Positions 17,937-35,694 of a stretch of 64,000 bases of DNA are shown here, one piece after another. A program made the translations under genes and the position numbers. Below the pieces are notes generated by a model that had not been told where the DNA came from, made no database searches, and was given only the letters and a program-made list of their open reading frames with translations. The stretch's first letter is position 1. The number at the start of each line of letters is the position of its first letter. The stretch comes from Candidatus Ghiorseimicrobium undicola (GTDB taxonomy: Bacteria > Omnitrophota > Gorgyraeia > Ghiorseimicrobiales > Ghiorseimicrobiaceae), in NCBI GenBank assembly GCA_002796125.1, contig PCWA01000035.1:457-64456 (forward strand), read 5' to 3'.

Positions 17937-17946
17937 AAGGATATTA

Positions 17947-19868: not shown

Positions 19869-20663
19869 GTGGCGCAGGGCTTTAAAAAAATAGTTATCAT
19901 AATATCAATATTGTTTGTTTTGCTTGTAGTTTTTTCAGTTGCCGCTATTGTTTATACCGAGAGGCCGAAATTTTGTATCAGCTGCCATATAATGGACCCT
20001 TATTACGCTTCATGGGAAAAATCCGCGCATAAAGAAGTGAATTGCCTGGAATGCCATTATGAGCCGACATTAACCGCGCATGCCTTAGGCAAGATTAACG
20101 GTTTAGTTCAGGTAGCGCAGTATCTGACTAAGCGGTATTATGGCAGGCCTACGGCTGAAGTCAGCGATGCTTCATGCTTGAGGGGCGGATGCCACCTAAG
20201 AGAAGAGATTGCGGGCAAGGAAATACTTTTTAAAGATAAGATCCGGTTTACGCACGCCAGCCACCTTGAGAGCGTTAAAGGAGGCATTGAGTTGCGCTGT
20301 ACCAGCTGCCATGCGCAAATAACCGATGATGAGCATATCGCCATAGATAAAAATGCCTGTTATATCTGCCACTTTAAAAATGTAAATGCTAAAGAGCTAA
20401 AATTTGAGTGCCTAAAGTGCCACAGTATTAAGGTATCCTCAGGCGAGCATAAGGAGTACGCGGAAAGCCCGATGGCATGTTCGGACTGCCACGGTGAGAT
20501 AAAATTAGGCGATGGAAATGTGCGCGGCCAGATTTGTTTATTTTGTCATGCCGACAAAGAGGCAATAGAAAACATAAAAGACAAAGAATTGATGCATAAA
20601 GCGCATATAAAAGAAAATAAAGTGGATTGCATCAGTTGTCATGATTTTATTGAGCATAAATAA
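19869..20663 (+). CDS. Membrane-anchored NapC/NirT/NrfH-family multiheme cytochrome c (8 CxxCH plus 1 CX4CH); putative quinol dehydrogenase.
   Basis: N-terminal TM followed by FCISCHIMDPYYASWEKSAH, the hallmark of NapC/NirT. Eight CxxCH are counted (CISCH, CLECH, CTSCH, CYICH, CLKCH, CSDCH, CLFCH, CISCH), plus CLRGGCH. Confidence 0.75.
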   Translation: MAQGFKKIVIIISILFVLLVVFSVAAIVYTERPKFCISCHIMDPYYASWEKSAHKEVNCLECHYEPTLTAHALGKINGLVQVAQYLTKRYYGRPTAEVSDASCLRGGCHLREEIAGKEILFKDKIRFTHASHLESVKGGIELRCTSCHAQITDDEHIAIDKNACYICHFKNVNAKELKFECLKCHSIKVSSGEHKEYAESPMACSDCHGEIKLGDGNVRGQICLFCHADKEAIENIKDKELMHKAHIKENKVDCISCHDFIEHK

Positions 20664-20702
20664 TTAACCGGATTATTAGAAAAAAAGAAAGGGGATTTTG
20701 AA

Positions 20703-21233
20703 ATGGCAAAAAAAAGTTTAATTTTAACCATTGGCTTATTGTTTATTTTTTGCGGATTATCCGTAGCCGAAGGAGAGCATAAGTATATCGGTGTTAAGAA
20801 GTGTTCAATGTGCCATCAGTCTGATGCAAAAGGCAACCAGTACAAACAATGGCTCTCTACCGCGCATGCTAAGGCTTATGAAAGATTGGGCAGCCCAGAA
20901 GCTAAAGAAACTGCCGAAAAAGCAGGAGTATCGGGCAATCCTCAAGAAGTAGGCCAATGTTTAAAGTGCCATATAACCGCCTATGGCGCAGATGGAAGCT
21001 TATTAGATTCCGGATTTAAGAAAGAAGACGGTGTGCAGTGCGAAACATGCCATGGAGCAGGAAGCGATTATATGGCAATGAGCGTTATGCAGGATAGGGA
21101 TAAGGCAATTGCCGCGGGCTTGATTATGCCTACGGAAGAGGTCTGCGTTAAATGCCATAATGAAGAAAGCCCGAATTTTAAAGGTTTCAATTTTGACGAG
21201 TATTATCCAAAAATAGCGCACCCAAGGCCGTAA
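20703..21233 (+). CDS. Periplasmic tetraheme cytochrome c.
   Basis: Signal peptide and four CxxCH (CSMCH, CLKCH, CETCH, CVKCH). Confidence 0.75.
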   Translation: MAKKSLILTIGLLFIFCGLSVAEGEHKYIGVKKCSMCHQSDAKGNQYKQWLSTAHAKAYERLGSPEAKETAEKAGVSGNPQEVGQCLKCHITAYGADGSLLDSGFKKEDGVQCETCHGAGSDYMAMSVMQDRDKAIAAGLIMPTEEVCVKCHNEESPNFKGFNFDEYYPKIAHPRP

Positions 21234-21343
21234 TAAAGGCCTTAATAATAAGGATGCAAGCTTGCTGTTGACGGGTTTTTTTGAGATGTTGAATCTTTTA
21301 ATCTGTTGAATCTGCCCCCAGCCGCCTGCATCCGTTTTTAAAA

Positions 21344-22405
21344 ATGTCGATTAAACAAACTAAAATCTGGAAATTTTTTTCATCCATGCAATTGGCAATA
21401 TGGCTATTGGCCGTTATTGCTCTTTTTTCTCTTGTGGGGACCCTGATACCGCAAAATCAGCAGGCCGCTGAATATATTTCGCGCTACGGCCATACGGGTT
21501 ATGAAATTCTCCTAAAAACCGGCCTGCTGAATATGTATTCTTCATGGTGGTTTATTTTTCTTATGGGGTTGCTTTCTTTGAATTTAAGTGTTTGTCTTAT
21601 TAATAGATTTTCGCCGCGCCTGCGCCTTCTCGGGACTTTTTTATCGCATTTCAGCATACTTATGATATTAGCCGGCGCTTTGACAGGAATGTTTTTTGGA
21701 GAAAAGGGCTATGTGCAGATTAAAGAAGGCCAAAGCATAGATTCATTTATCTCCAAAGGAAAACCGGTAGCCTTAAATTTTTCCCTAAAACTGGAAGATT
21801 TTATTTATGAAGAATACATCGATGACGAGGAAAATCTTTTGGTCTATGATAATGAGGGAGCATTGCTTTTAGAGCTCAACGCAGGGGATGATAAAAATAC
21901 CGCAATTGCTGATAGCGGCTACAGCATTAAGATATTGCGCTACGTGCCTGACTTTTCCATGGACTTATCAACAAAGGAAGTCGTAAGCCGGTCACAGGAG
22001 CCGATAAATCCGGCATTGCAGGTTGCGCTTACGGATAAAGATGGCAATTCCGTAGAGTCTTGGGTTTTTGCCCGCTATCCTGATGTCCACATGTCGGCGG
22101 AGAAAAAATTCAATTTTAAATATCAATGGAAGATGCGCAGGCCCAAGGAGTTTATAAGCAGGGTTGCGGTTATAAAAGATAGAGAGATAGTCAGTGAAAA
22201 AGATATAAAGGTAAACAGCCCTTTAAAATACGGCGGCTATGCTTTTTTTCAATCCAGCTATGATAAAGAGAGCTTGGCATGGTCGGGCTTACAAATAGTT
22301 AAGGATCCGGGCGTGCCTATTGTTTATCTGGGTTTTATTTTGCTTATATTTGGGCTGTCGATTATATTTTATGTCAACCCTGCCCTAAGAAGCCGGGCGA
22401 CATAA
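21344..22405 (+). CDS. resB: Cytochrome c biogenesis protein ResB/CcsB (System II), short form.
   Basis: N-terminus KFFSSMQLAIWLLAVIALFSLVGTLIPQ is the conserved ResB start. A periplasmic domain and C-terminal TMs (LWFGLSIIFYV) follow. Confidence 0.75.
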   Translation: MSIKQTKIWKFFSSMQLAIWLLAVIALFSLVGTLIPQNQQAAEYISRYGHTGYEILLKTGLLNMYSSWWFIFLMGLLSLNLSVCLINRFSPRLRLLGTFLSHFSILMILAGALTGMFFGEKGYVQIKEGQSIDSFISKGKPVALNFSLKLEDFIYEEYIDDEENLLVYDNEGALLLELNAGDDKNTAIADSGYSIKILRYVPDFSMDLSTKEVVSRSQEPINPALQVALTDKDGNSVESWVFARYPDVHMSAEKKFNFKYQWKMRRPKEFISRVAVIKDREIVSEKDIKVNSPLKYGGYAFFQSSYDKESLAWSGLQIVKDPGVPIVYLGFILLIFGLSIIFYVNPALRSRAT

Positions 22406-22454
22406 AGTTTAATCCGGAGTCAATTCGCACCGCCTTCAGCGGTGCCCATTGAAT

Positions 22455-22581: not shown

Positions 22582-22590
22582 GGTGATAAA

Positions 22591-23361
22591 ATGCTTCCCG
22601 TATACTTAAATATCAGTTTTGCCGCGTATTTTTTATCAATGTTTTTTTATTTCGCGGCTTTATTTTTTAAACATAAAGCCTTGTCTCTGGCCGCGAGGAT
22701 TTTCTTGTGCCTTGGGGTTGCGGGTTTGACGGCTTATATGCTGCTGCGTTGGCAAGTAGCGCAAAGGCCGCCACTTTCTAATATGTTTGAGTCTGTGGTA
22801 TTGTTTGCTTGGGTGGTGGGCCTGGCAGGATTTTTTATCGATATGCGCTACAGGCTTAAGATTCTGGCAGCATTAGTTTCAGCCTTGAGCCTATTAACGC
22901 TCGGTATCAGTTTTTTATTGGATAAAGAGATAGTACCTTTATTGCCTGCTTTAAAAAGTAATTGGCTTACTATTCACGTATTAACATGTTTTATCGGTTA
23001 TGCCGCCTTGACCGTTGGTTTTGTGGCTAGCGTTGTTTTGTTGTTAACTGATGAAAAAACAGATATCTTGGATGCCATAAGCCATAAAACAATCGCCTTT
23101 GGATTTTTATTTCTGACATTAGGTATTGTAAGCGGAGCGGTCTGGGCAAATTCGGCCTGGGGTACATATTGGAGCTGGGACCCGAAAGAGACATGGTCAT
23201 TGATTACCTGGTTTATATACGCGATATACCTGCATGCGCGGTTCAGAAGAGGCTGGAAAGGGAAAAAAGCCGCCTGGTTTTCTATTATTGGGTTTTTGGC
23301 TATGTTATTTACTTATTTTGGAGTAAACTATTTATTGAGAGGGCTGCATAGTTATGCCTAG
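22591..23361 (+). CDS. ccsA: Cytochrome c-type biogenesis protein CcsA/ResC (heme-handling, System II).
   Basis: WWD-domain signature WANSAWGTYWSWDPKETWSLITW, conserved His residues and eight TMs. Confidence 0.9.
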   Translation: MLPVYLNISFAAYFLSMFFYFAALFFKHKALSLAARIFLCLGVAGLTAYMLLRWQVAQRPPLSNMFESVVLFAWVVGLAGFFIDMRYRLKILAALVSALSLLTLGISFLLDKEIVPLLPALKSNWLTIHVLTCFIGYAALTVGFVASVVLLLTDEKTDILDAISHKTIAFGFLFLTLGIVSGAVWANSAWGTYWSWDPKETWSLITWFIYAIYLHARFRRGWKGKKAAWFSIIGFLAMLFTYFGVNYLLRGLHSYA

Positions 23362-24205
23362 AGCGTTTGGAGTCAAAAATACTATAATTTTAATTTTTAT
23401 ATGTGCTTTTATTTTTCCGGCGCTTTCCTTTAGCGCGCTTGTATTTGCGCAGGAGAGCGAATTTAAGGAAAAATGCCGCTCCTGCCATAAGGAGGTTTTG
23501 GATAAATGGGATATGTCAGCTATAAAGCATTATCCTTATCGTGAAGGAAAGTGTGAGTCTTGTCATGCGGCAGAGCACAAAAAATTTACGGCGGAAGCGG
23601 GCAAGCCATGTTTGATTTGTCATGATTTAACGTCTGAAAAAATAAAGAACAGCCATTTTTCTGTAAATTTAAGTGATGTCGATTGTTTTTCATGCCATTA
23701 TACGCATAGCGCGGAGAAAAAAGGATTATTGAAAGAAAGCGTGCATATGCCGTTCTCTTCCGGCATGTGCGAAATGTGCCATAGCGTTGACGGGGGTAAA
23801 ATAAAAGTAAAAGATATGACTAAAAAATCGTGCCTTGCCTGTCATGGTACTTTGGTAAGCAAGGACGATTCAGTTAAGCATATGGGCTATGAAATGCAGG
23901 AATGTGTGGATTGTCACAATCCACATACTTCAAGCCACGAAAAACTTTTAAAAAGCTCTGTTTCTGAGAACTGCTTTCAATGTCATGATAGAGAACAGGC
24001 TAAGAAGCACCCATACGATGTTAGCGTATCTTCGCGTATTTTAAATAATATGCTTGACAAAGATAAGAAAATATGGTTAACTTATAGCAACAAAATAAGT
24101 TGTACGAGCTGTCATCTTCCGCATTCCGCAAGGATCCCATTTTTGCTGAGAGATTCTCTTGATCAGGGGGAGCTTTGCAATCATTGTCATATAAAAAGTA
24201 AGTAA
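23354..24205 (+). CDS. Decaheme cytochrome c (periplasmic/membrane-associated).
   Basis: N-terminal hydrophobic segment and ten CxxCH in 283 aa. Confidence 0.8.
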   Translation: MPRAFGVKNTIILIFICAFIFPALSFSALVFAQESEFKEKCRSCHKEVLDKWDMSAIKHYPYREGKCESCHAAEHKKFTAEAGKPCLICHDLTSEKIKNSHFSVNLSDVDCFSCHYTHSAEKKGLLKESVHMPFSSGMCEMCHSVDGGKIKVKDMTKKSCLACHGTLVSKDDSVKHMGYEMQECVDCHNPHTSSHEKLLKSSVSENCFQCHDREQAKKHPYDVSVSSRILNNMLDKDKKIWLTYSNKISCTSCHLPHSARIPFLLRDSLDQGELCNHCHIKSK

Positions 24206-24222
24206 AGTAGAGGAGTGAAAGC

Positions 24223-25221
24223 ATGGAAAAGAGAAATATTTTTTTTGAAAGATTAGTGAAATTTTTCACGGTGATACTTTTCACTATTTGTTCGCTATTT
24301 TTTGTCGGTTTTCTGCCATCTTTTTGCGAGTCTGCCCCTTCGGGGAAAATAACACATAAATACTTATTTGAGATAAAACCCGATGCAAATAAAATCGGCG
24401 CTTTAAACCAGCCGGCAGATATAGCGGTTGACGTATCAGGTAATTTATATGCTGCTGATACGGTAAATAGCCGCATAGTAGTTTTTGATGCCTCGGGAAA
24501 TGCTAAATTCGCTTTCGGCAGGCATGGAACCGGAAAGGAAGAATTAAGCGCTCCTATGGCTTTAACCGTTGATTCAAAAAATAAAAAGGTTTATGTGGCT
24601 GATTCTTCAAATTACCGCATACAGATATTTAAGACCGACGGCATTTTTCTATCATCCATTGATTTGAATAAAGATAAGACTGGCGAAGAAAAAGATGTGC
24701 GCCCCATAGGGATTGCCGTAGCCGGAGGCGGCAACATCTATGTATCCGATGCGGATAATAACTATATCCGTATATATTCTTCGGATGGTAAATTTTTATC
24801 GAAATTCGGCGGATTTGGATCGGAGAACGGCAAGTTCTGCATACCGGTAGGCTTATTTGTAGATGCGGATGATAAGTTATACGTAGTGGATATGAATAAT
24901 TCCCGGCTGCAGGTTTTTGATAATCAAGGGAATTTTCTATTTAAAATCGGCTCTGCCGGAGACGCAAGAGGCGATTTTGGCAGGCCTAAAGATGTATGCG
25001 TGGATGAGAATGGGTTTATTTATGTTTCTGACGGAGCAAATTTGGTCATCCAGATTTTTGATAAGAACGGTGAATTTATTGACTTAATAGGTGCGGAGAA
25101 AGAAGTTGATTTACAGTTTGCTTCTCCGTTTGGTTTGGCGGTATTAAATGGACGCCTTTATATAACGGACAGATGGAGAAATAGTATCAGAGTTTATGAA
25201 ATTGAGGAGGTGAGTAAATGA
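24223..25221 (+). CDS. NHL-repeat six-bladed beta-propeller protein, secreted.
   Basis: Signal peptide and repeated NHL motifs (YVADSSNYRIQIF, YVSDADNNYIRIY, YVVDMNNSRLQVF, YVSDGANLVIQIF, YITDRWRNSIRVY). Confidence 0.8.
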   Translation: MEKRNIFFERLVKFFTVILFTICSLFFVGFLPSFCESAPSGKITHKYLFEIKPDANKIGALNQPADIAVDVSGNLYAADTVNSRIVVFDASGNAKFAFGRHGTGKEELSAPMALTVDSKNKKVYVADSSNYRIQIFKTDGIFLSSIDLNKDKTGEEKDVRPIGIAVAGGGNIYVSDADNNYIRIYSSDGKFLSKFGGFGSENGKFCIPVGLFVDADDKLYVVDMNNSRLQVFDNQGNFLFKIGSAGDARGDFGRPKDVCVDENGFIYVSDGANLVIQIFDKNGEFIDLIGAEKEVDLQFASPFGLAVLNGRLYITDRWRNSIRVYEIEEVSK

Positions 25222-26318
25222 AAAAGGTTTTTGTTTTGCTGGCGGGGTTTATTTTTGTGGTCGCGGCTTACGGAACAGCCGTAGCCGGTGTTGCCAATAC
25301 CGATCACGATATGTATGCAGAGGGCAAGGGCACAGATCCCAATGTATGCGGTTACTGTCATATTCCGCATAACGCGGTTGGTAATAAAATCTGGTCTGAC
25401 TGGGGTAATGAAGCACAGCTTACATCAGGCCCTTCCAGCCCGATAGGGAACATGTGTTATACCTGCCATGACGGGACAGCAACTAATGCGGGCCAGACTA
25501 CAGTATTCAATACGGCTCTTCAGCAGCATAAAGTAGGCGGGACCGCCGACTGTAATAGTTGCCACACCGTTCATGATAATACTAACGGTAAATTTGTTGG
25601 TATTGTCGCGACTCAGAGCGCAAATACAGAATTTGCCACTTACTGCGAAACTTGCCATGATGCGACTCAGTATCCCGGGGCAGAGATTCACGGTGACCAC
25701 ATTGCAGGCAGTGAGCATCCCTATAAAGATACTGGTGCGTTGCTGGATACCAGCTGTAACGCCTGTCATCAGATGCACGGAGCTGTTAATTACACAACCG
25801 GTTCTTTAACTAATCCGATATTAAAAGCGGATAATACTGATTCGGCGTTTTGCGCCGGATGCCACCCCGCTAAAATACAGGCAACTTCAGGAGCTAATAA
25901 ACATCCTGCTAATTTAACATCGGGAGGGGCTTGGGGTAAGGTTGATTGTCAAGCCTGTCATGACGTGCATCAACCTAATGATCCGGGCAGGCCGTTTGTA
26001 TTACTGGATGATAATGTTGATTCTGCTTATTGCCTTAGTTGTCATGATGCTTCAAGCACGACTAATGGCCCTAAGATTGGAGCCAATAGCCATCCTGTGG
26101 GGGTCGGTTTTAGTGTTACGCCTACGGATCCGACGCTTACTCCTGCCGGAGATGCCATTGATGATAATAACACCGGCGGGCCGGATTATCCGGGAAATAG
26201 TTCGAGCATAGTTTGCGAAAGCTGTCATTCCATACACAGCAAAGGAGTAGCGGCTCCGCTCTTGCGTATTACCGCAGGCGCGGGCACATTATGTATTAAT
26301 TGTCATCCGAACAAATAG
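25218..26318 (+). CDS. Multiheme cytochrome c, paralogue 1 of a tandem family (10 CxxCH).
   Basis: Signal peptide, then HDMY-x-GKGTDPNVCGYCHIPH...KIWSDWGNEAQLTSGPS...IGNMCYTCHDGT, the N-terminal block shared with 26509, 27736 and 28911. Confidence 0.8.
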   Translation: MKKVFVLLAGFIFVVAAYGTAVAGVANTDHDMYAEGKGTDPNVCGYCHIPHNAVGNKIWSDWGNEAQLTSGPSSPIGNMCYTCHDGTATNAGQTTVFNTALQQHKVGGTADCNSCHTVHDNTNGKFVGIVATQSANTEFATYCETCHDATQYPGAEIHGDHIAGSEHPYKDTGALLDTSCNACHQMHGAVNYTTGSLTNPILKADNTDSAFCAGCHPAKIQATSGANKHPANLTSGGAWGKVDCQACHDVHQPNDPGRPFVLLDDNVDSAYCLSCHDASSTTNGPKIGANSHPVGVGFSVTPTDPTLTPAGDAIDDNNTGGPDYPGNSSSIVCESCHSIHSKGVAAPLLRITAGAGTLCINCHPNK

Positions 26319-26347
26319 ATGCAGTAATGTTTTAGATGATAATAGGG

Positions 26348-26508: not shown

Positions 26509-27678
26509 GTGGAGCTTCAAAAAAATTTAATGAAAATTATACATACCGGAATTATTTTGACGTCATCAATTTTTTTATTCTCTATAGCCGATTTGTCTTT
26601 TGCCGGAGTCGCCGGATCCCGGCACGACATGTATTTTTTGAGCAAAGGAACCGACCCTAATCCCTGCGCATACTGCCACATACCGCATAATGCCGCGGGT
26701 GATAAAATCTGGTCTGACTGGGCAAATGAGGCTCAACTCACCAGCGGCCCGTCAACGACCATTGGTAATATGTGCTATACCTGCCATGACGGGACTGCCA
26801 GCTATCGCGGCTTAAATAGCGTATTTAATCTTTCTCTGCAGCAGCATAAAATATCTGCCGGCCGGGATTGCGATATGTGCCACAGTGTGCATGATAACAC
26901 TAACGGGCAATTTATGAATATAGCGGGTAAGCAGAATTCTTATTGTGCCGCCTGTCATGATGCTGCGGTTAATGCCGGAGGGTTAGGCGACCATGTAAGC
27001 TATCCCGCGAATCATCCAAATTGCGGAGGGTGCCATGGAGTATTTGAACTGGATTCATTAGGGGCAAACGGCGATGATGCCAGCTGCCACCTTTGTCATG
27101 CTAAAGCTCACGGCGCGGTAAATTATACGGCAGGATCGATAACTAATCCTATATTAAAATCCAATAATACGGATAGCCAGTATTGCGGGCTTTGCCATCC
27201 GGATTTGGTCCAGGCGAATTCAGGCGGCAGCAAGCATCCGGCCAATACATCAGGCAGTGCTTATGGTAAGATAACATGCCAGTCATGCCATGACCCGCAT
27301 CAGCCCGGGATAACAAACCAGCTGTATCTATTGACGGACAGCAATATAGACTCGCAGATGTGTATTGATTGTCATAACGGTTCCAGCGGCCCGGACATCG
27401 GGCATTCTCATCCTAATCAAGTTAGTTTTGGCACTATTGTTCCTGTAGATGCTTCGCCGCAGACAGGTACCCCTCCGGGTAATCAAATAAATGATAATGA
27501 TTATGATGATGGACATTCGGATCCGGATACTTACCCTGATTATCCCGCTAATTCCGCCAGCATGATATGCGAAACCTGTCATAGCGTGCATCGCAAAGCG
27601 GATAATGCCGGAATAAAACTTTTAAGAATAACCAATACTAATTCGGCATTGTGCTTAAACTGCCACACGGACAAGTAA
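26509..27678 (+). CDS. Multiheme cytochrome c, paralogue 2 (11 CxxCH).
   Basis: Same N-terminal block (SRHDMYFLSKGTDPNPCAYCHIPH...) and shared C-terminus LLRITNTNSALCLNCHTDK. Confidence 0.8.
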   Translation: MELQKNLMKIIHTGIILTSSIFLFSIADLSFAGVAGSRHDMYFLSKGTDPNPCAYCHIPHNAAGDKIWSDWANEAQLTSGPSTTIGNMCYTCHDGTASYRGLNSVFNLSLQQHKISAGRDCDMCHSVHDNTNGQFMNIAGKQNSYCAACHDAAVNAGGLGDHVSYPANHPNCGGCHGVFELDSLGANGDDASCHLCHAKAHGAVNYTAGSITNPILKSNNTDSQYCGLCHPDLVQANSGGSKHPANTSGSAYGKITCQSCHDPHQPGITNQLYLLTDSNIDSQMCIDCHNGSSGPDIGHSHPNQVSFGTIVPVDASPQTGTPPGNQINDNDYDDGHSDPDTYPDYPANSASMICETCHSVHRKADNAGIKLLRITNTNSALCLNCHTDK

Positions 27679-27735: not shown

Positions 27736-28914
27736 ATGAAGAATCAAGAATCAAAAACTGCAGGTTATTTGAAAATTCCCTTAGCCATTAGTTTAATAGT
27801 TCTGGCTTATAATTTAAGTTTCGCCGGGGTGTCCGGGACAGTCCATGACATGTATTCTTTAGGTAAGGGAACAGACCCGAACCCCTGCGGCTATTGCCAT
27901 ATGCCGCATAAGGCCGCAGGAGAGAAAATCTGGTCCGACTGGGGCAATGAGACGCAATTAACCAGCGGTCCATCAACCGCCATAGGTAATATGTGCTATA
28001 CCTGCCATGATGGGACAGTGACTAATGTGGGTTTATCGACAGCGTTTAACGCTTCCCGGCAGCAGCATAAAATACCTGCCGGGCAGGATTGCGATATGTG
28101 CCATAGCGTGCATGATAATACGAACGGAAAGTTTATGAATGTTGTAAAGAAACAGCAAACATATTGCGCCGCCTGCCATGATGCAATAGTTAATGCTGGG
28201 GGGCTTGGCGATATGACTTCAGCTGGAAATCATCCCAGTTATTGGGCGTCTACGCCCGCTCATAATATAAATGGTTCACCCACCGGCGCATTCTGTACGG
28301 CTTGTCATGAACGCGTGCATTATTCTCAATTTGACTGCAGGGGATGTAATTTTTGCCATAAAGCACATGACGGGACTAATTATTCAACCGCGCAAGTGCC
28401 TAATCCGATTTTAAAAGCCGACAATACTGATAGTCAGTATTGTGCCTCATGCCATCCATATAAGATTCAGGCATCAAGCGGTGGTGATAAACATCCGGCA
28501 AACCTTGCGGCAGCTGGCAACTGGGGAAAGGTTATTTGCCATGATTGCCACGATCCGCACCAGCCCGGTGTTACGAACCATCCTTTTATATTAACGGATA
28601 CTAATGTTGATTCGGCAATGTGTATTAATTGCCACGATAATACAGCCGGGCCTGAGATAGGAGTTTCGCATCCGCATCAGATTCCTTTTGGCAGTATAGT
28701 TCCGACTGATGGCTCTGCTGCGGCTGGTACGCCCGCTGCGAATGCAATAGATGATGACGGAGAAGACGGAGTTGATTATCCATTAAATTCAGCTAATCTT
28801 ATTTGTGAGACGTGTCATGGAACACACCGCAGAGTTGATGATGCGGGGACTAAACTACTTAGAATAACCAATACTAATTCGGCATTGTGCCTAAACTGCC
28901 ACACGGATAAATGA
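27736..28914 (+). CDS. Multiheme cytochrome c, paralogue 3 (11 CxxCH).
   Basis: Same family. The last ~80 nt are nearly identical to paralogue 2. The N-terminal MKNQESK is encoded by heptamer repeats. Confidence 0.8.
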   Translation: MKNQESKTAGYLKIPLAISLIVLAYNLSFAGVSGTVHDMYSLGKGTDPNPCGYCHMPHKAAGEKIWSDWGNETQLTSGPSTAIGNMCYTCHDGTVTNVGLSTAFNASRQQHKIPAGQDCDMCHSVHDNTNGKFMNVVKKQQTYCAACHDAIVNAGGLGDMTSAGNHPSYWASTPAHNINGSPTGAFCTACHERVHYSQFDCRGCNFCHKAHDGTNYSTAQVPNPILKADNTDSQYCASCHPYKIQASSGGDKHPANLAAAGNWGKVICHDCHDPHQPGVTNHPFILTDTNVDSAMCINCHDNTAGPEIGVSHPHQIPFGSIVPTDGSAAAGTPAANAIDDDGEDGVDYPLNSANLICETCHGTHRRVDDAGTKLLRITNTNSALCLNCHTDK

Positions 28915-30086
28915 TGAAATTAAAAATGAAAAATAAAAAATCTAAAACCGTGACTTATTTTAAAATTCCCTTAGCCGTCAGTTTATTTTTTTTGATTTAT
29001 GATTTAAGTTTTGCGGGGGTGTCTGGGACAGTCCATGATATGTACACACAGGGTAAAGGCACTAGCCAGGAGGTATGCGCTTATTGCCATATTCCTCATC
29101 AGGCCAAAGGTGATAAAATCTGGTCTGACTGGGCAAATGAGGCTCAACTCACCAGCGGCCCGTCAACAACCATAGGCAATATGTGCTATACCTGCCACGA
29201 CGGGACAGTGACCAATATAGGCTTATCAACGGTATTTAATGCTTCGCTGCAGCAGCACGTTATGCCTGCCGGCCAGGATTGCGATATGTGCCATTCTGTG
29301 CACGATAATACTAACGGTAAGTTTATGAATGTCGGCTTAACCGAGAACTATTATTGCGCCAGTTGCCATAATGCTGCGGTAAACGCTGGCGGGCTGGGTG
29401 ATTATACGAATTCAGGAAACCATTTTAATTATGGCGTATATGACGGCGCCCATCCCAAAAGGTTTGGCTCCGGCTGTTATAGCTGCCATTATGATCATAT
29501 GCAAAGCATCGTGAGTTTAGGCAGTTGTAAATTCTGCCATGAAGCTCATGCCGGAGCGAATTATTCTACGCCATCGGTATCTAAACCTATCTTGCGTATT
29601 GATAACACCGATAGCGCATTTTGTATATCTTGTCATCCTGCGATGCAGCAGGCGACGACAGGCGGCAATAAGCATCCCGCTAATTTGACTGCCGGAGGAA
29701 ATTGGGGCATAGTGGATTGCCATGACTGCCATGATGTACATCAGCCGAATAATCCTAATAATCCTTTTATATTACGTAACCAAAATACCGATTCCGGATA
29801 CTGCGCATATTGTCACGAGGCGATTAATGAAACCTATGGGCCTAAAATCGGTAATGGGCATCCGGTAAATATTGCTTTCGGAGCCTATCCTCCGATTGAT
29901 GCGTCTTTGACGCCTGCGGGCAATGCTATAGATGATGACGCATATTACGGGATAGATTATCCGGCAAATTCATCCGATATGATATGCGAAACATGCCATT
30001 CGGTGCATCGAAAGGGCGTGGCAAGCCCTCTATTGCGCATGAGCATTACGGATAGCTCGTTATGCCTTAACTGTCATCAGATGTAA
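28911..30086 (+). CDS. Multiheme cytochrome c, paralogue 4 (11 CxxCH).
   Basis: Same family. Its start overlaps the stop of paralogue 3. A 56-nt stretch is identical to paralogue 2 (gataaaatctggtctgactgggcaaatgaggctcaactcaccagcggcccgtcaac). Confidence 0.8.
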   Translation: MMKLKMKNKKSKTVTYFKIPLAVSLFFLIYDLSFAGVSGTVHDMYTQGKGTSQEVCAYCHIPHQAKGDKIWSDWANEAQLTSGPSTTIGNMCYTCHDGTVTNIGLSTVFNASLQQHVMPAGQDCDMCHSVHDNTNGKFMNVGLTENYYCASCHNAAVNAGGLGDYTNSGNHFNYGVYDGAHPKRFGSGCYSCHYDHMQSIVSLGSCKFCHEAHAGANYSTPSVSKPILRIDNTDSAFCISCHPAMQQATTGGNKHPANLTAGGNWGIVDCHDCHDVHQPNNPNNPFILRNQNTDSGYCAYCHEAINETYGPKIGNGHPVNIAFGAYPPIDASLTPAGNAIDDDAYYGIDYPANSSDMICETCHSVHRKGVASPLLRMSITDSSLCLNCHQM

Positions 30087-30132
30087 TGCGGTTGTTGGCA
30101 GTGAGTTATGAATTAGGCGAGATAAAAGAAAA

Positions 30133-31572
30133 ATGAAAAGCATAAAAACTTTATTACCTATATTTGTTTTTATTGTCTGTCTTTTTGCTGCCAGCCATGT
30201 TTTTGCTTCACACGGCCAGGGACAAAAATGTTATATGTGCCATCATGCTATGCATAATAATAATTCTCATGTAGTTATAGACCGCAAGGCTGTTGACAAT
30301 GGGCAGATAGCTTGTTATGATTGCCATTCTTCGGCCAGCGCAGTGGCAGCCCCGGACACGGAAAAAGAATTTATAAGCGGCTATTCCCGTCATCCTTTAG
30401 GAAGCGATAGCGAGTGCGTTGTCTGTCATGATTTGGGCAGCAGCCATATAGACGGTAATCTTGATAGTTGGCCGGACATAACCTTGAAAGATCCAGACTC
30501 GGCGGATTCCCATGTGTACACCGGAGTTAAAATTAATGATTTTTGCCTTTCCTGCCATGATAACAGCCCGGTTACTTTAGGCGGGGCGGCGAATGTGCCT
30601 GTAGATTTATCCAGCGCTTATGAATTTACCGGCCACGGTAAAATAAGCATAGATGAGCCTTGTAATTCCTGCCATGAACATCATGCGTCCATGACTAAAC
30701 CCTACTTGATTAAAGATGTAATTAACAGCGCCAATGTTACGGGAAACGATAATAGCGTATGTTTTGCCTGCCATAGTTATTCAGAAGGAATTTATCCCGG
30801 AAAGAATGTTTATTTATCTTCCGAGCACGGCATCCAAAACAAACTTTGCATAGACTGCCACAATCCGCATGGGGACAATAAGGATTTATGTTATTTATGC
30901 CACAACGCGAATTACTCGGCGCATTACAGCACGCAGCGCGATAAGCTTTGCATAGACTGCCATAATCCGCACGAAAAGAACGACTTAAAGATGAACAGGG
31001 AAGACGAGGAAAAGCTTTGTTTTATTTGTCACTCCGGACTGGAAAATGAATTTGGGAATATCCGAGACGGCGTCGGAGGGGCATTTTCTCATCATAAAGT
31101 TGACGATGAAGAATTCGCAGGCGGCAGGGTAGAATGTTTTGACTGCCATAATCCGCATGTAGTTACAAAGCTGAATATCATTAGCGACCCGGAAGATCCT
31201 CTGCTCATGCCCAGGCCTTTTTCAAGCGCGTCATACCGCCAGAGAACGGCAGTTTATGATGATTTTTGCCTTTCCTGCCACGATGGTTCACGCATGGGCG
31301 CAAAGGACATAGCTTCAGAATTAAGCGATGAAAATTATCTGGATAGCGGTTTTACCGAAGACGGCAGCAAGAACCTGCATGCAGAGCACAAGGATAAAAA
31401 TTTTGGATGCCAAAACTGTCATGATGCGCATTCCAGCGACGGAACCGGAGGCATGCAGCGGGGGGCTCTTTTACATGAGGAAATAACAGTAAATGATTGG
31501 GATCCATCCGGCGGATATAATAACGGTAAAAATTCATGCGATACTTCAGCTTTAGGTATGAGCTGTCATTAA
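30133..31572 (+). CDS. Periplasmic multiheme cytochrome c (about 13 CxxCH).
   Basis: Signal peptide and 13 CxxCH motifs in 479 aa. Directly upstream of the outer-membrane beta-barrel gene. Confidence 0.8.
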   Translation: MKSIKTLLPIFVFIVCLFAASHVFASHGQGQKCYMCHHAMHNNNSHVVIDRKAVDNGQIACYDCHSSASAVAAPDTEKEFISGYSRHPLGSDSECVVCHDLGSSHIDGNLDSWPDITLKDPDSADSHVYTGVKINDFCLSCHDNSPVTLGGAANVPVDLSSAYEFTGHGKISIDEPCNSCHEHHASMTKPYLIKDVINSANVTGNDNSVCFACHSYSEGIYPGKNVYLSSEHGIQNKLCIDCHNPHGDNKDLCYLCHNANYSAHYSTQRDKLCIDCHNPHEKNDLKMNREDEEKLCFICHSGLENEFGNIRDGVGGAFSHHKVDDEEFAGGRVECFDCHNPHVVTKLNIISDPEDPLLMPRPFSSASYRQRTAVYDDFCLSCHDGSRMGAKDIASELSDENYLDSGFTEDGSKNLHAEHKDKNFGCQNCHDAHSSDGTGGMQRGALLHEEITVNDWDPSGGYNNGKNSCDTSALGMSCH

Positions 31573-31611
31573 TGTTTAGAATATATAATGCAGAATGTAG
31601 AATGTAAAATT
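31570..31611. repeat. 7-bp-periodic tandem repeat (tagaatg-type) spanning the stop of the 13-heme cytochrome and the start of the beta-barrel gene.
   Basis: taatgtt tagaata tataatg cagaatg tagaatg taaaatt. Confidence 0.8.
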
Positions 31612-33387
31612 AACGAGGTAGAAGGGATATTACTATTTTTAGGGGTGTTTTTATGCGCTTTTTTATTTCTTTGCAAAAGTTCTTATGCGAATCCGGCAGA
31701 GAATTTAAATATTAATGCCGAATCCGAATATAAATTCAGTGATTTTGAGCGCGATCCGGAACCAGCCTTGTCATCAACCGGAGCGAATCTTTCCCAGGAG
31801 TATAAGTTTTATTTAGAAGGAGGGGTATTAAAAGACGGGTTGCTTGATGCCGAATTAGGAGTGTCCACGCAGGATAAATACAGGCAAAATGATGCGGATT
31901 TTGAAGATAAGGTGCGTTTTGATTACGGCAGGATTCTACGCATAGAAACAGAGACAACTAGAGAAACCGATGAAGAGATATTCTTTTCAGCCACTACTGA
32001 GCCGCAATCCCCGATATATACAATACGTAAAAAGTATGACGGCCGGCTTGCTCTGGACAGCGTATCAGAATTTGAGTATATTTTAGATCAAAACGAGAGG
32101 AATGATTTGCTTCTTGGCACTGTTACCGGAGAAAAAACCAAAACGCAAATTTTGCGTTTTCGTTCTGATAGGGGGCCTTTGAGTTTTGAAAGCGAATACC
32201 GAAAATCTGACTTTGATGACCTTTTGGGCGTACGCAGCGACATCAGTTCCACGGATTTGAATTTTAATCTTTCTTATCGTCCGGTAAAGTATTTTGGTAT
32301 TTCCGGTTTTTTTGAAGAGAGCAAGGATGAGGATTTAGATAGAAGTACGGAGTTAAATTCCCGTAACTCGCGCCTTGAACTTGAGTTAAAGCCCTTAAAT
32401 GAATTAAAATTGCGTAATCGTTTTAATATCCGGGAAGACGAAGATACAAATACCGGCGAAGACATAACCAATACCTCTGATGAGGTTATACTTAATTTTA
32501 TTCCTGTAAAACAGGTTGACTTACAGCTTAACTATAAAAAAGAGGACGAAGATAAAAACAGAGATTCTTCCTCCATTGTTTCCGAGATTGACGAAAAAAA
32601 AGTCCGCCTAAGAATTAAGCCGGTAAGCGAGCTTGACCTGCAATCGGGATATGAAGTGTCGGATAAGTCAAGTAGTTCAGCGGCTGAAAATATCAAAAAT
32701 ACAAAAGTTTATGCCGATATCGCGTTTGAGCCGTTAACAAGTATCCGGCTAAGCACGAATTACACGAATACAACACAAAAAAATACCTTTACTTCTTTGA
32801 CGGAATCTGATACAAAATCTATATTGGCATCCCTTCAGTATAGGGGAGGCGAAAAGCTGTCTTTCTATTTTCAGGCGGATACAAGTAAAACCGATAATCC
32901 TTCAACGGGGGCGTTTACAAAGACAGATACCCTAAGTTCAAATTTAAATATCGATCTTTTTTCATTTCTTGATGTAGTTGCCCGTAGCAGCCTGCAGGAA
33001 ACCAGCGGATCTTCCGCTTCTGCTTTGGCAAAACGGCTGCTTAGCTCGATAGAATTCAATGCTCGGATTTTTGATAACCTGAAGCTTTCTACTGAGTATG
33101 AATTTATTGATTCAAGCGGAGCGTCTGCTTCAAATGAAGATTTATTTGATGTAGCGGTATTTTACAATATTGGAAAATTTGATTTTTCCTTGCGCCTCCA
33201 GAAGCGGGATGTAGCAGGAGTTAATGCCTTAGATAAAACAACGGTGTTGAGTAATATTAAATACAGATTTACAAAAAACGCGGTATTGAGTTTCAGGTTT
33301 TCCTTAATAGATTTCAGCGATAAAGAGATGGCGGCGAATAGCTATGACTCCACCACGCTGGAGAGTATTTTATCCATGAGGTTCTGA
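31588..33387 (+). CDS. Outer-membrane beta-barrel protein (putative porin component of a porin-cytochrome conduit).
   Basis: Signal peptide, 599 aa of alternating amphipathic S/T/D/N/Y-rich segments, and a C-terminal ...ILSMRF ending in Phe (OMP signature). Flanked by multiheme cytochromes. Confidence 0.6.
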   Translation: MQNVECKINEVEGILLFLGVFLCAFLFLCKSSYANPAENLNINAESEYKFSDFERDPEPALSSTGANLSQEYKFYLEGGVLKDGLLDAELGVSTQDKYRQNDADFEDKVRFDYGRILRIETETTRETDEEIFFSATTEPQSPIYTIRKKYDGRLALDSVSEFEYILDQNERNDLLLGTVTGEKTKTQILRFRSDRGPLSFESEYRKSDFDDLLGVRSDISSTDLNFNLSYRPVKYFGISGFFEESKDEDLDRSTELNSRNSRLELELKPLNELKLRNRFNIREDEDTNTGEDITNTSDEVILNFIPVKQVDLQLNYKKEDEDKNRDSSSIVSEIDEKKVRLRIKPVSELDLQSGYEVSDKSSSSAAENIKNTKVYADIAFEPLTSIRLSTNYTNTTQKNTFTSLTESDTKSILASLQYRGGEKLSFYFQADTSKTDNPSTGAFTKTDTLSSNLNIDLFSFLDVVARSSLQETSGSSASALAKRLLSSIEFNARIFDNLKLSTEYEFIDSSGASASNEDLFDVAVFYNIGKFDFSLRLQKRDVAGVNALDKTTVLSNIKYRFTKNAVLSFRFSLIDFSDKEMAANSYDSTTLESILSMRF

Positions 33388-34331
33388 TGGAATATCAAAT
33401 ACCGAATATTGAAAATCAAAAATACAGATCTATTATTTTTTTGATTTTTATATTTGTTTCTTTGCAGCTTGCGTTTTTTATAGATAAAAATACTGCCTTT
33501 GCCGAAGGGCTAAAGAATCTTAATGATGACTGCCGCGGCTGTCATCAAATAGAAGTTGAAAGTTTTGATTTAACTTTACACTCAGCGGAGATTGATTGTG
33601 CTGCCTGCCATGGTGATGTTAAAAAACATTTAAGCGAAAGCGATAAAAAAGGCAATATAATTAATCCCGCTAATTACGCGTTAAAAAAGGCAAATGCCGT
33701 ATGCCTGCTTTGTCATACGGAAAAAGAAAGAGATGTCCGCGATAAATTCAGGGCGGTTGCTAATCTGCATGATGATATAGCGTGTTTTAGGTGCCATGTT
33801 GTTCATTTGACTGCTGTAGATGCTCCGGTAAGCGATATTGACGGTTTTAGAGATGATTTATCTATAGATTGCGCCTTCTGCCATGATGACCAGGGCCGGA
33901 TTTTTAGCGAGTCGGAGCATGCCTCTTCAGGCCTGATATGTTCCGATTGCCATCTGCTGCATAAGATAAGTACCATAAGCCAGGATATTGAAGAGCAGAT
34001 TGAAAAATGCCTTTCATGCCATCCTCAGCAGCAGCTGGAATTTAAATACCCCTATCCGCATCCATTAAGAGAGCGGCAAATTAAATGTTCGGATTGCCAT
34101 AATCCGCACGGTTGGCAATTTGATAAAATGCTAAAAAAAGACGGCGATAGGGTTTGCGCGGATTGCCATGCCGACGTGGCCATAGAAGGAGGCAGGCATC
34201 CCGCGGGTAAAAACGCGGACCATCCGTTCGGCACTGTAGCGTGTATGGATTGCCACAGGCCGCACGGCTCAATTTTTGATAAAATTTTAATACATAATAT
34301 TGATAGTATTTGCCAAACCTGCCATAATTAG
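33387..34331 (+). CDS. Multiheme cytochrome c (about 11 CxxCH).
   Basis: Signal peptide and 11 CxxCH in 314 aa. Translationally coupled to the beta-barrel gene (start overlaps its stop). Confidence 0.8.
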   Translation: MEYQIPNIENQKYRSIIFLIFIFVSLQLAFFIDKNTAFAEGLKNLNDDCRGCHQIEVESFDLTLHSAEIDCAACHGDVKKHLSESDKKGNIINPANYALKKANAVCLLCHTEKERDVRDKFRAVANLHDDIACFRCHVVHLTAVDAPVSDIDGFRDDLSIDCAFCHDDQGRIFSESEHASSGLICSDCHLLHKISTISQDIEEQIEKCLSCHPQQQLEFKYPYPHPLRERQIKCSDCHNPHGWQFDKMLKKDGDRVCADCHADVAIEGGRHPAGKNADHPFGTVACMDCHRPHGSIFDKILIHNIDSICQTCHN

Positions 34332-34385
34332 GAATACGGATTATGGCGGATAATATATACGGATGCATACGGATTAAATATGGGA
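34332..34385. repeat. 7-bp-periodic tandem repeat (atacgga-type) between the 11-heme cytochrome and the lipoprotein gene.
   Basis: gaatacg gattatg gcggata atatata cggatgc atacgga ttaaata. Confidence 0.75.
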
Positions 34386-34392
34386 GGATTGA

Positions 34393-35250
34393 ATGTATAA
34401 GAACATGAAATGCAAAATATTACTGGTTACGAGTTACTGGCTGCTGGTTACTTTCTTTATTGGCTGCGCGAGCGGGCCATCAAGTTATTGGCGGCCTAAG
34501 CATTTCTCGCGCTCTAAGTACATAAAGGTTGCCATAGTGCCTTTTACAAATCTCAGTAAAGAAAAGGAAGCTGATCAAAGGATAGCCTATTCATTGATAA
34601 CGCATCTTCTCAATACGCATTATTTTAATGTTGTTGAAATGGGGGAAGTGCAAAGGGCTTTGAAGGAAGCCAAGGTGCGCAAGGATGAGGGCCTCTCGGT
34701 AGAGGAAATTAAAAAAATCGGCCGGCTGATTGATGTAGAAGCCTTGCTTATGGGCGCGGTAGAAGAGTATAAGATTGATTCCAGCACTTTACTTGGAGAA
34801 AAAGTATTTGTGCCGGAAGTGTCGATTAACGCGAGGTTAGTCTCTACTGAAGACGCCGAGATAATCTGGGCCGCGAATCACCATCGCAGAGGGGATGACA
34901 GGGTAACTGTGTTTGGGATGGGCAGAATTGACTCTATCAGCGAATTGACAGATGTTATTATAAAGAACATTGTTAATTCTTTGCTTAAAGTGGCAAAAAG
35001 CAAGAGGAGCGCGCTTACCGGGTTAAAACGAAGCGTTATTTTGGAGGATGTCCCAGACGAGGAATTAGAAAATACCGTTTTGGATATTAAGCCTGCCTTA
35101 CGCGAAGATGTCATGGATAAGGCAATGGAAAGCGTAAAAACGGCGTCAAAAGATTCCTCAAGCGCGATAGCGCCTAAAACAGAAGATTCAAAGGCAAAAA
35201 TAAAAAGCGATTACAAAAGAGAGTATGAGCGTGTAAAAAAACAATTTTAA
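34393..35250 (+). CDS. Lipoprotein (lipobox FIGC), unknown function.
   Basis: N-terminal LLVTFFIGCASG signal plus lipobox. Part of the cytochrome/porin cluster. Confidence 0.5.
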   Translation: MYKNMKCKILLVTSYWLLVTFFIGCASGPSSYWRPKHFSRSKYIKVAIVPFTNLSKEKEADQRIAYSLITHLLNTHYFNVVEMGEVQRALKEAKVRKDEGLSVEEIKKIGRLIDVEALLMGAVEEYKIDSSTLLGEKVFVPEVSINARLVSTEDAEIIWAANHHRRGDDRVTVFGMGRIDSISELTDVIIKNIVNSLLKVAKSKRSALTGLKRSVILEDVPDEELENTVLDIKPALREDVMDKAMESVKTASKDSSSAIAPKTEDSKAKIKSDYKREYERVKKQF

Positions 35251-35259
35251 TATATAATC

Positions 35260-35694
35260 ATGACAAGATTTTCCGGGAAAATAATTATATTTTGTTTGAT
35301 ATCGCTTGTAGCGGTTATTTCCTATAGCATTAGCCAGGAAATTTTAAATTCCGGAGAGGACTGCATTAAATGCCATGATCCGGCACTTGGCCCGCAAAGA
35401 AATTTTGTCCATCCGTTAATAAGAGAACATAAGTGCCGTGCTTGTCATATTGATTACGACGCCGAAGAACATATAGAAGGCGATAAGCCCCAAATAGATG
35501 TATGCGCAGGGTGCCATCCGGAGGAAAACCTCGGGCGTTCTCATCCTATTGGCAGCGGGATTACTGACCCTAATACCAATGATACGATGACCTGTGTTTC
35601 CACATGCCATAGGATGCACGGTACGGATTTTAAGCAGCTTGTCCCTTTTAAAAATAATATGGAGCTATGTTTAAGTTGCCATGAAGACTTTTAA
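35260..35694 (+). CDS. Small multiheme cytochrome c (4 CxxCH plus 1 CX3CH).
   Basis: Signal anchor plus CIKCH, CRACH, CAGCH, CLSCH and CVSTCH. Confidence 0.7.
   Translation: MTRFSGKIIIFCLISLVAVISYSISQEILNSGEDCIKCHDPALGPQRNFVHPLIREHKCRACHIDYDAEEHIEGDKPQIDVCAGCHPEENLGRSHPIGSGITDPNTNDTMTCVSTCHRMHGTDFKQLVPFKNNMELCLSCHEDF

Follow-up and report, generated by a model that had tools for sequence, protein, structure and literature searches.

The 64-kb window analysed here, a stretch of contig PCWA01000035.1 of the uncultivated groundwater bacterium Candidatus Ghiorseimicrobium undicola (Omnitrophota), carries on its + strand, at positions 19869-35694, a dense island of multiheme cytochrome c genes. 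The island probably encodes an apparatus for extracellular electron transfer (EET) in which two modules are joined and which adjacent genes for heme synthesis and System II cytochrome maturation would feed. It is a lineage-specific mix of an MtrAB-type porin-cytochrome conduit and of the gene cluster that accompanies OmcE nanowires, and not a wholly new system; the new conduit architecture proposed in a first-pass annotation of this DNA was too strong a claim, as two described designs have been recombined. Our evidence consists of gene content, homologies, synteny, the prediction of the fold of a beta-barrel protein and translational coupling, and from these we infer the localisation of the cytochromes, the insertion of an MtrA homologue in the barrel, the direction of the electrons (to a mineral or partner, or else into the cell) and the physiological partner.

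Fifteen co-directional open reading frames (ORFs) span the island. All ORFs that had been named before were present at their coordinates, on the + strand and in the order reported, and the family labels attached to them (NapC/NirT, ResB, CcsA, NHL, barrel and lipoprotein) agree with Pfam, NCBIfam and PDB sequence searches. The cytochromes number ten, and not at least eleven as previously counted. Translation and motif counting gave, in gene order, 8, 4, 10, 10, 11, 11, 11, 13, 11 and 4 CxxCH motifs; the motif-rich island is real, and the earlier figure of about 95 motifs has to be corrected to 93 canonical ones. Upon six-frame translation, 94 CxxCH motifs were found within 19869-35694 versus 3 in the other 48 kb, a density far above chance. 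Three candidate non-canonical heme sites are located in the first (octaheme) cytochrome, in the last tetraheme and in the 13-heme protein. A hydrophobic signal-like N-terminal segment, which the EET interpretation of the first-pass annotation presupposed, was seen on 10/10 cytochromes. Horizontal acquisition of the island was considered and rejected, since its composition is near that of its flanks and all genes are co-directional.

Most of the island corresponds to a conserved core. Its order, namely a decaheme, an NHL propeller, two to four tandem paralogues, a 13-heme protein, the barrel, an 11-heme protein, a lipoprotein, a tetraheme and a HAMP protein, is repeated in five other contigs (L001/L010, L002/L003, L005/L013, L009 and L011, paired names standing for one related locus each), four of the named ones being from Omnitrophota. 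The barrels of the six syntenic contigs are 48-62% identical.

The barrel gene (31588-33387, +) encodes a 599-aa outer-membrane beta-barrel of an orphan family, which ends in SMRF and has thus a C-terminal Phe. Its sole Pfam match is a weak one to Porin_4, it has no NCBIfam match, and no relation to the MtrB/PioB sequence family was detectable in Pfam, NCBIfam or profile searches. AlphaFold2, given a 12-sequence alignment, returned an all-beta, plug-less model without long loops (pLDDT 71.7, pTM 0.58), which agrees with the fold assigned to this protein beforehand. From residue 182 on, the model comprises 23 confident strands, and about 7 poorly modelled strands precede them, which makes a total of about 30; its best structural match is MtrB. 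The protein is 100% identical to COV72_02565 of Candidatus Omnitrophica bacterium CG11_big_fil_rev_8_21. Besides itself, eleven close homologues were found at 48-62% identity, the named source among these eleven being Omnitrophota. A profile search of 1.84e9 representatives yielded five matches, which are one full-length cluster, three fragments and a weak one, P0016, the only remote relative of the barrel (hhalign probability 93%). P0016 is encoded directly downstream of a 289-aa MtrA-like decaheme, in the mtrA-mtrB order, and this decaheme aligns with the 11-heme protein of the window with an E value of 3.5e-32. As P0016 too adjoins an MtrA-like decaheme, the pairing of cytochrome and barrel is a property of this barrel lineage. 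When the single barrel protein was used to scan the genome collection, 107 pattern matches were obtained and 0 were confirmed.

The gene next to the barrel (33387-34331, +) encodes an 11-heme MtrA homologue, the candidate barrel-inserted cytochrome. Its residues 95-313 (219 residues) match MtrA as present in the solved Mtr complex (PDB 6r2q_A, E 2.1e-24), and it scores 144.7 bits with the DmsE family model TIGR03508, for which the cut-off is 192.2. The stop codon of the barrel gene and the start codon of the 11-heme gene overlap by 1 nt (TGATG), and the adjacency of both genes is kept in all related loci. Both genes are predicted to be translationally coupled and, as the start of the one overlaps the stop of the other, the MtrA homologue would be made together with the barrel.

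Upstream of the barrel lies a 13-heme cytochrome (30133-31572, +) that is a candidate barrel partner on one face. It matches PF22113 (49.6 bits, cut-off 30), contains pentaheme stretches similar to domains II/IV of MtrC/MtrF, and has a signal-like N-terminus, with an AXA-type site recognised by eye, and no lipobox. No significant PDB sequence match was obtained for it, stretches aligning with NrfA being at chance level. Its C-terminus contains an invariant GKNSC-x8-CH (31537-31569, residues 469-479), the His of which is the last residue in 4/4 orthologues; this CX8CH is a possible non-canonical 14th heme site. Downstream of the barrel and its partner, a 285-aa protein (34393-35250, +) is predicted to be an outer-membrane lipoprotein of the CsgG/LpoB/DUF799 superfamily (Pfam CsgG E 5e-9, LpoB E 1e-4). 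It has the lipobox FIGC and is the only island protein with a lipobox among those checked. The PDB sequence search gave no match for it. Its close homologues share contigs with barrel homologues wherever this could be matched, and one of its two weakest homologues is annotated as DUF799. The island closes with a small tetraheme cytochrome of 144 aa (35260-35694, +), a core member with orthologues in L001, L002, L011 and L013; a CX3CH in it (CVSTCH, 35593-35610) is a possible extra or variant heme site.

The functional edge of the island lies beyond position 35694, as a HAMP protein is kept in the related loci and a CcdA/DsbD_2 gene is located downstream. The HAMP protein (35722-36321, +; Pfam HAMP E 5e-5), outside the coordinates noted earlier, has about 193 aa, two transmembrane (TM) helices, a coiled coil and no output domain, and directly follows the tetraheme in all related loci examined. 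A five-TM protein encoded at 36400-36972 (+), with no Pfam match, is present only in the window and in L001. Four His are kept in the L001 orthologue (HLRIH in TM1, and one each in TM3 and TM5), and the protein could bind a cofactor. That it might be the five-helix core part found in PCC3/PCC4-type clusters was rejected, as it occurs elsewhere in L001 only and is devoid of the HX13H pattern.

The proposed second module is formed by the genes at the 5' side of the core. The first core gene (23354-24205, +) encodes a decaheme that is a distant relative of MtrA/DmsE (PDB 6r2q_A, E 8e-9; TIGR03508 62.7 bits, under the cut-off); it was found in all related loci and is a candidate periplasmic wire. 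A six-bladed NHL beta-propeller follows (24223-25221, +; Pfam NHL E 1.3e-37, 6 repeats), with a signal-like N-terminus and without a canonical lipobox. Next come four tandem paralogues, one of type A with 366 aa and 10 hemes (25218-26318, +) and three of type B with 389-392 aa and 11 hemes each (26509-27678, 27736-28914 and 28911-30086, +), as judged from motif counts and alignment. Each related locus carries one type A gene (about 361 aa, 10 hemes) and one to three type B genes (about 385-392 aa, mostly 11 hemes). As the DNA identity among the four paralogues is just 58-66%, the duplications are old. In other genomes, each of the two types has orthologues of its own, and this, together with the low DNA identity, led us to reject a recent tandem duplication or an assembly artefact. 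Paralogues 2 and 4 share an identical run of 59 nt (26698-26756 and 29109-29167) versus 61% identity overall; local gene conversion or strong constraint on this segment may account for it.

All four paralogues start with an OmcE-like N-terminal module, with the layout HD...CxxCHxPH...W...CxxCHDG, upon which doubled-CxxCH modules follow. PDB searches with a 9-sequence profile, and then with a 101-sequence profile, produced only two strong matches, which are OmcE of Desulfuromonas soudanensis (9YUQ, E 5.4e-14) and OmcE of Geobacter sulfurreducens (7TFS, E 1.5e-13); MtrA (3.6e-6) and OmcS (1.5e-5) were weaker ones. The N-terminal module by itself matches both OmcE filaments with domain E values of 8e-9 and 4e-8. 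What is specific to OmcE lies mainly in about the first 80 residues, which include the signal peptide, the invariant His-Asp, CxxCHxPH, the Trp and CxxCHDG. The CxxCHxxH spacing of the paralogues is the same as that of His16 of OmcS, the inter-subunit ligand. Describing these genes simply as four tandem 10-11-heme paralogues, the first-pass annotation had missed both the OmcE-like module and the accessory gene set of the omcE cluster. A tetraheme OmcE of about 220 aa was not found among the ORFs of the island or of the window, both window tetrahemes being either c554-like or without the HD...CxxCHxPH module.

Many phyla, among them Zixibacteria, Krumholzibacteriota, Eisenbacteria, Acidobacteriota, Deferrimicrobium, Ignavibacteria and Verrucomicrobia, have full-length relatives of the paralogues, which show 35-40% identity, measure about 382 aa and mostly carry 9 hemes. 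Of 26 loci with sufficient upstream DNA, 19 have an NHL gene that ends within 400 nt upstream of the first gene of the family; outside Omnitrophota, this holds for 15 of 22. In the distant clusters, an NHL gene is followed by a family member, and then by genes for an MtrA-like decaheme (E 6e-9 to MtrA), an NHL lipoprotein, a tetraheme of 222 aa, a protein of 704-722 aa with no Pfam match, and a further NHL protein. In one of them, L006, NHL and a 9-heme family member are followed by the MtrA-like decaheme, the NHL lipoprotein, true OmcE and a 704-aa protein; the tetraheme is homologous to OmcE over its full length (E 5.5e-23 to 7TFS), and the order fits the published minimal definition of an omcE cluster (bioRxiv 10.1101/2025.10.22.684050). 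The family of the window paralogues and the MtrA-like decaheme correspond to the two accessory cytochromes of L006 and L007. The window paralogues are accordingly best taken, on these homologies, as the counterpart of one accessory cytochrome of the omcE cluster and not as OmcE itself.

Two side observations concern the distribution of the family. Close homologues of the paralogues occur on contigs binned as Woesearchaeota and Kerfeldbacteria (L012 and L021), from 0.1-um groundwater filtrates; these are probably mis-binned, very small Omnitrophota-like or other bacterial cells. Besides, in Desulfurobacteriaceae and other metagenome-assembled genomes (L047, L048, L050, L052 and L053) an NHL gene is followed by cytochromes of 817-1262 aa with 19-28 hemes, which match the paralogue family weakly and suggest further size variants of the NHL-cytochrome pairing.

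When compared with known systems, the island resembles the MtrAB, MtoAB and PioAB conduits of Shewanella, Sideroxydans and Rhodopseudomonas (PDB 6R2Q) in that an MtrA homologue is adjacent and translationally coupled to an outer-membrane barrel, here modelled as large and plug-less, and resembles MtoAB and PioAB also in having no lipoprotein surface decaheme. It differs from the MtrAB type in several respects: the barrel, with 599 aa, is shorter, yet is modelled with about 30 strands versus 26 for MtrB; barrel precedes cytochrome in the gene order; the cytochrome has 11 hemes and stays below the DmsE-family cut-off; and the conserved 13-heme protein, the CsgG/LpoB-like lipoprotein, the tetraheme and the HAMP protein are additional. 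Of the likeness to MtrCAB and OmaB-OmbB-OmcB claimed in the first-pass annotation, the barrel with its MtrA homologue holds, whereas a surface lipoprotein cytochrome is missing. The Geobacter complexes OmaB-OmbB-OmcB and ExtABCD/EFG/HIJKL likewise combine in one operon a periplasmic multiheme, a barrel and further cytochromes, but theirs have lipoprotein surface cytochromes, their heme numbers and sizes differ, and none of the family models available for these porin-cytochrome complexes matched the island proteins.

The published omcE clusters of Desulfuromonadales and relatives consist of two multiheme cytochromes, two beta-propeller lipoproteins, the tetraheme OmcE and a large beta-barrel (bioRxiv 10.1101/2025.10.22.684050; structures 7TFS and 9YUQ). 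The island shares with them a co-directional set of NHL propeller, MtrA-like decaheme, 9-11-heme cytochrome with OmcE N-terminus and large barrel, and its families are found also within omcE-type clusters of Zixibacteria, Krumholzibacteriota, Acidobacteriota, Ignavibacteria and Verrucomicrobia. In contrast to these clusters, it is devoid of the tetraheme OmcE, has a single propeller without canonical lipobox instead of two lipoprotein propellers, has amplified the 10-11-heme family to 2-4 copies, and carries a barrel unrelated in sequence to the 704-aa protein of L006 (hhalign probability 0.2% with the barrel profile). OmcE homologues have been reported from five phyla, Omnitrophota not being among them (bioRxiv 10.1101/2025.10.22.684050).

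Other NHL-containing and lineage-restricted clusters bear comparison as well. In Desulfovibrio ferrophilus IS5 (DFE_0448-0451 and DFE_0461-0465, the "DFE" markers of FeGenie), multihemes are interleaved with NHL propellers, NHL proteins accompany surface cytochromes, and an MtrA-like periplasmic cytochrome has been proposed; a beta-barrel, which the island does have, is not among the components described in the text consulted (PMC5815863). Genes of the DFE type were found in DeMMO metagenomes, where Ca. Omnitrophica is among the FeGenie-flagged iron-cycling taxa (PMC8478452). NHL proteins have also been linked to surface cytochromes in Geoalkalibacter (PMC12016550), and the NHL protein GSU2505 adjoins omcS (PMC9070056), where the osc cluster occurs as well. 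The clusters EET1-4 of peat Acidobacteriota/Verrucomicrobiota (bioRxiv 10.64898/2026.05.27.727921) and PCC3/PCC4 of Fe(II) oxidisers (PMC5566968) are similar to the island in joining, in syntenic arrangement, lineage-restricted porins with OmcE-like and MtrA-like cytochromes of 8-13 hemes; phylum and barrel family differ and, with respect to PCC3/PCC4, a five-helix inner-membrane protein of the di-heme b type is not a conserved part of the island. Literature on Omnitrophota and multiheme cytochromes or EET gave passing mentions only, and none of it was found to describe the architecture of the island, its orphan barrel or any OmcE-related cluster in this phylum.

The link to the inner membrane lies outside the conserved core. 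The first gene of the island (19869-20663, +) encodes an octaheme NapC/NirT/NrfH-like cytochrome, a candidate quinol dehydrogenase (Pfam Cytochrom_NNT, PF03264, E 6e-12; 46 bits versus a cut-off of 24.1). It scores 64.8 bits with the NrfH model TIGR03153, under its cut-off, and matches NrfH in PDB (2j7a_C) with an E value of 3e-7. The features that define the NapC/NirT/NrfH family, i.e., an N-terminal TM anchor (here a single helix, residues 1-30), a CxxCHxM first motif (FCISCHIM) and a tetraheme core, are all present. The protein differs from the known quinol dehydrogenases of this family by its second half, a fused c3/c7-like tetraheme C-terminus that brings the hemes to 8, and by its NrfH equivalog score below the cut-off. 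A CX4CH (CLRGGCH) at 20175-20195 is a possible extra or variant heme site. Identity with ImcH was rejected on size and topology, the protein having 264 aa and one TM helix.

In the window the NapC-like gene is upstream of resB. It is not found upstream of the core in L002, and in L001 a different gene (136-2907) encodes a 923-aa protein with signal peptide, 19 CxxCH motifs and a C-terminal four-helix cytochrome b (Ni_hydr_CYTB-like). This 19-heme fusion, which resembles the CbcL/MtoC class, sits between ccsA and the core decaheme, a place at which the window has no counterpart. Homologues of the CbcL/MtoC and ImcH types have been tabulated for Ca. Omnitrophica (PMC6295460). As two different quinone-linked entry modules adjoin one and the same conserved core, the core would need a link to the inner membrane.

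Between the NapC-like gene and the core, three more genes were found. A secreted c554-like tetraheme (20703-21233, +; Pfam Cytochrome_C554 E 1.4e-20, signal-like N-terminus) is a candidate periplasmic carrier and has an orthologue upstream of resB in L010. ResB/CcsB (21344-22405, +; Pfam ResB E 3e-52) and CcsA, the heme lyase/channel subunit (22591-23361, +; Pfam Cytochrom_C_asm E 4e-54), belong to System II of cytochrome c maturation. Both are encoded upstream of the core in the window, L009, L001/L010 and L005/L013, and are missing from L002; the upstream sequence of L011 is too short to judge. With the DsbD_2/CcdA-like membrane protein encoded at 37548-38273 (+; Pfam DsbD_2 E 2.6e-6), the thiol-reductant arm, which lies just downstream of the cluster in L001 as well (17856-18569), all parts of a System II (Ccs) set, i.e., ResB/CcsB, CcsA and a CcdA-type reductant transporter, are present.

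Taking these data together, we propose the following route. The NrfH/NapC-like octaheme would connect the route to the quinone pool, as the place where electrons enter or leave it; in the outward sense, they would run from the quinol pool through this octaheme to the c554-like tetraheme and the decaheme, then to the MtrA homologue in the barrel, and from there to outward multihemes. In the first module, the orphan barrel, with its about 30 modelled strands, would house the 11-heme MtrA homologue, through which electrons would cross the outer membrane; the 13-heme protein, the CsgG/LpoB-like lipoprotein and the small tetraheme are conserved companions. The second module would correspond to the accessory set of the omcE cluster, i.e., the MtrA-like decaheme, the NHL propeller and the 10-11-heme cytochromes with OmcE N-terminus, these latter, with four copies of two ancient types, being outward-facing or cell-surface carriers that the neighbouring type II secretion-like system might export. 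The proteins facing outwards may be the 13-heme protein, the paralogues or both, and the NHL propeller and the lipoprotein may act as scaffolds or assembly factors.

Several findings weigh against this proposal. None of the ten cytochromes (0/10) has a lipobox, and TIGR03507 (OmcA/MtrC) was absent at E <= 0.01 from the 13-heme protein and from the paralogue scanned, the generic PF22113 being the only match; by homology, hence, no surface-exposed component could be assigned. The complete EET route of the first-pass annotation stands as to the NrfH/NapC-like inner-membrane protein, the periplasmic multihemes and the barrel coupled to an MtrA homologue, but not as to the surface component. By the NCBI rule, the 11-heme protein would be a distant relative of MtrA/DmsE and not a member of the family. 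The C-terminal part of the OmcE match corresponds to a generic doubled-CxxCH module that can be aligned at two positions. Finally, a catabolism able to feed the electron chain is not visible within the window.

The strongest of the competing explanations, possible but in our opinion rather unlikely, is that the module works in the opposite direction and takes up electrons, either by oxidising Fe(II) or minerals or by drawing on a host or partner cell, in the manner of MtoAB and PioAB, instead of reducing extracellular acceptors. The pair of MtrA homologue and barrel is the part common to Mto and Pio, and conduits of that type share with the island the lack of a lipoprotein surface decaheme. 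The related contigs come from groundwater and deep-mine samples, and Ca. Omnitrophica genomes from DeMMO have been reported to carry genes for the oxidation of iron as well as for its reduction. The sequence itself, however, does not reveal the direction; clusters of the NHL/OmcE type have been tied to reducers as well as to uptake by sulfate reducers, so that precedent exists both ways, and neither a terminal oxidase nor a nitrate reductase was seen in the window.

Less likely still is that the 10-11-heme paralogues polymerise through their OmcE-like N-terminal module into homo- or heteropolymeric extracellular filaments of 10-11 hemes per subunit, with propeller and barrel serving assembly, secretion or anchoring, a role already proposed for omcE and omcS clusters. 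The match of this module, including the invariant HD and CxxCHxPH, to both solved OmcE filaments is what would be expected of such a nanowire, and so is the retention in every locus of two ancient paralogue types, one of them amplified, in a cluster that in Omnitrophota has no separate gene for a tetraheme OmcE. OmcE-like proteins with an extra heme have been proposed as an undescribed nanowire family (bioRxiv 10.1101/2025.10.22.684050). In other phyla, however, the same family coexists within one cluster with genuine tetraheme OmcE and is more likely its accessory cytochrome; ten free invariant His for ten hemes permit a wholly intramolecular ligation, and polymerisation is not readable from sequence. 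A more elaborate version, to which we give yet a little less credence, is that the deca- and undecahemes replace OmcE and polymerise, possibly as A/B heteropolymers, into a nanowire of high heme density, charged through the barrel that holds the MtrA homologue, for exchange with minerals or with host or partner cells.

We consider it doubtful, more so than either form of the filament, that the barrel serves as a pore for secretion or anchoring, or else is an ordinary porin, and that the cytochromes form a purely periplasmic network, be it an electron store or a reductase chain for soluble substrates. The authors of the work on D. soudanensis OmcE do regard the barrel of the omcE cluster as a putative secretion or anchoring protein (bioRxiv 10.1101/2025.10.22.684050), and the weak Pfam Porin_4 match would fit a porin. 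The 1-nt stop/start overlap with the MtrA homologue argues against such a role, as do the model without plug or long loops and the fact that P0016, the sole remote relative, is likewise paired with an MtrA-like decaheme; moreover, there is no catalytic heme signature or reductase subunit. It is very improbable that the island encodes a respiratory reductase, such as Nrf, Hao or Otr, that acts on soluble compounds of nitrogen or sulfur (Nrf and Hao were named in the first-pass annotation as homologies that would overturn its EET interpretation): although the first gene is NrfH-like, the 13-heme protein has weak partial matches to NrfA (E about 0.01) and the MtrA homologue has NrfB-like stretches, no CxxCK motif is present in any island protein, no significant match to Nrf, Hao or another catalytic reductase was obtained in Pfam, NCBIfam or PDB sequence searches, no NCBIfam equivalog cut-off for Nrf proteins was reached, the NrfA matches are at chance level and confined to one heme-binding stretch, and NrfB-like pentaheme modules are normal in MtrA.

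Omnitrophota are widespread, uncultivated and often very small, and their energy metabolism is poorly known. The conservation of a module of about 93 hemes beside genes for heme synthesis, heme attachment and secretion suggests that this clade invests heavily in electron transfer across the envelope, which is relevant to iron cycling in the subsurface and perhaps to the exchange of electrons with other cells. The two-module arrangement also means that the accessory set of the OmcE cluster can exist without OmcE, joined to an unrelated barrel coupled to an MtrA homologue, and such an OmcE-less cluster is a natural experiment on the role of the accessory proteins. The orphan barrel family may exceed MtrB in size and is a good structural target for the study of heme wires that cross outer membranes. 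Reports of divergent porin-multiheme clusters that are specific to a lineage and contain OmcE-like and MtrA-like cytochromes are now coming from several phyla (bioRxiv 10.64898/2026.05.27.727921).

Upstream of the island, positions 8755-19849 (+) correspond to a siroheme-dependent (Ahb-type) heme biosynthesis operon, recognised with Pfam, which includes cysG-N, hemA, hemC, cobA-hemD, two radical-SAM genes, hemB, an ahbA/B-like pair and hemL. The stop codon of hemL and the start codon of the first cytochrome gene are separated by 19 nt, with a strong Shine-Dalgarno sequence (GGAGAGGAGG). This short gap confirms one part of the earlier statement that transcription runs on from the heme operon into the island; the statement itself, though possible, is doubtful because a perfect sigma-70 consensus (TTGACA-17 nt-TATAAT, 19647-19675, +) lies within the 3' end of hemL, 194 nt before the first cytochrome gene. 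It is the only perfect match in the 64 kb, both strands included, 0.08 being expected from shuffles, and as a candidate island promoter it suggests that the island has a promoter of its own. Two ORFs of the operon were left without assignment, one of 195 aa (17947-18534) and a 146-aa membrane ORF (9410-9850). The genes hemB-hemL also precede the omcE-type cluster of the unrelated genome L006 (1-2237).

Further upstream, genes similar to those of type II secretion systems or type IV pili (815-8104, +; Pfam) encode a secretin, T2SS-F, a pseudopilin with N-methylation motif, the products of three small ORFs without Pfam assignment that follow it, and the T2SS-E ATPase; surface cytochromes might be exported by this route. 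T2SS-E, T2SS-F and pilin genes are also located directly upstream of the cytochrome core in L002 (1-3053).

As to the rest of the window, ORFs of at least 150 aa are on the + strand up to about 56 kb, except two minus-strand ORFs nested in plus-strand genes, and the GC skew in this part is positive. Beyond about 57 kb, genes lie on the - strand and the skew flips its sign, the cumulative skew reaching its peak at 58-60 kb; the strand switch near 56-60 kb may be replication-related. Two genes unrelated to the island encode an outer-membrane barrel of the Alginate_exp type (49376-50920, +) and a ParA/MinD-like ATPase fused to a glycogen-binding CBM48/AMPK1_CBM domain (51675-52784, +).

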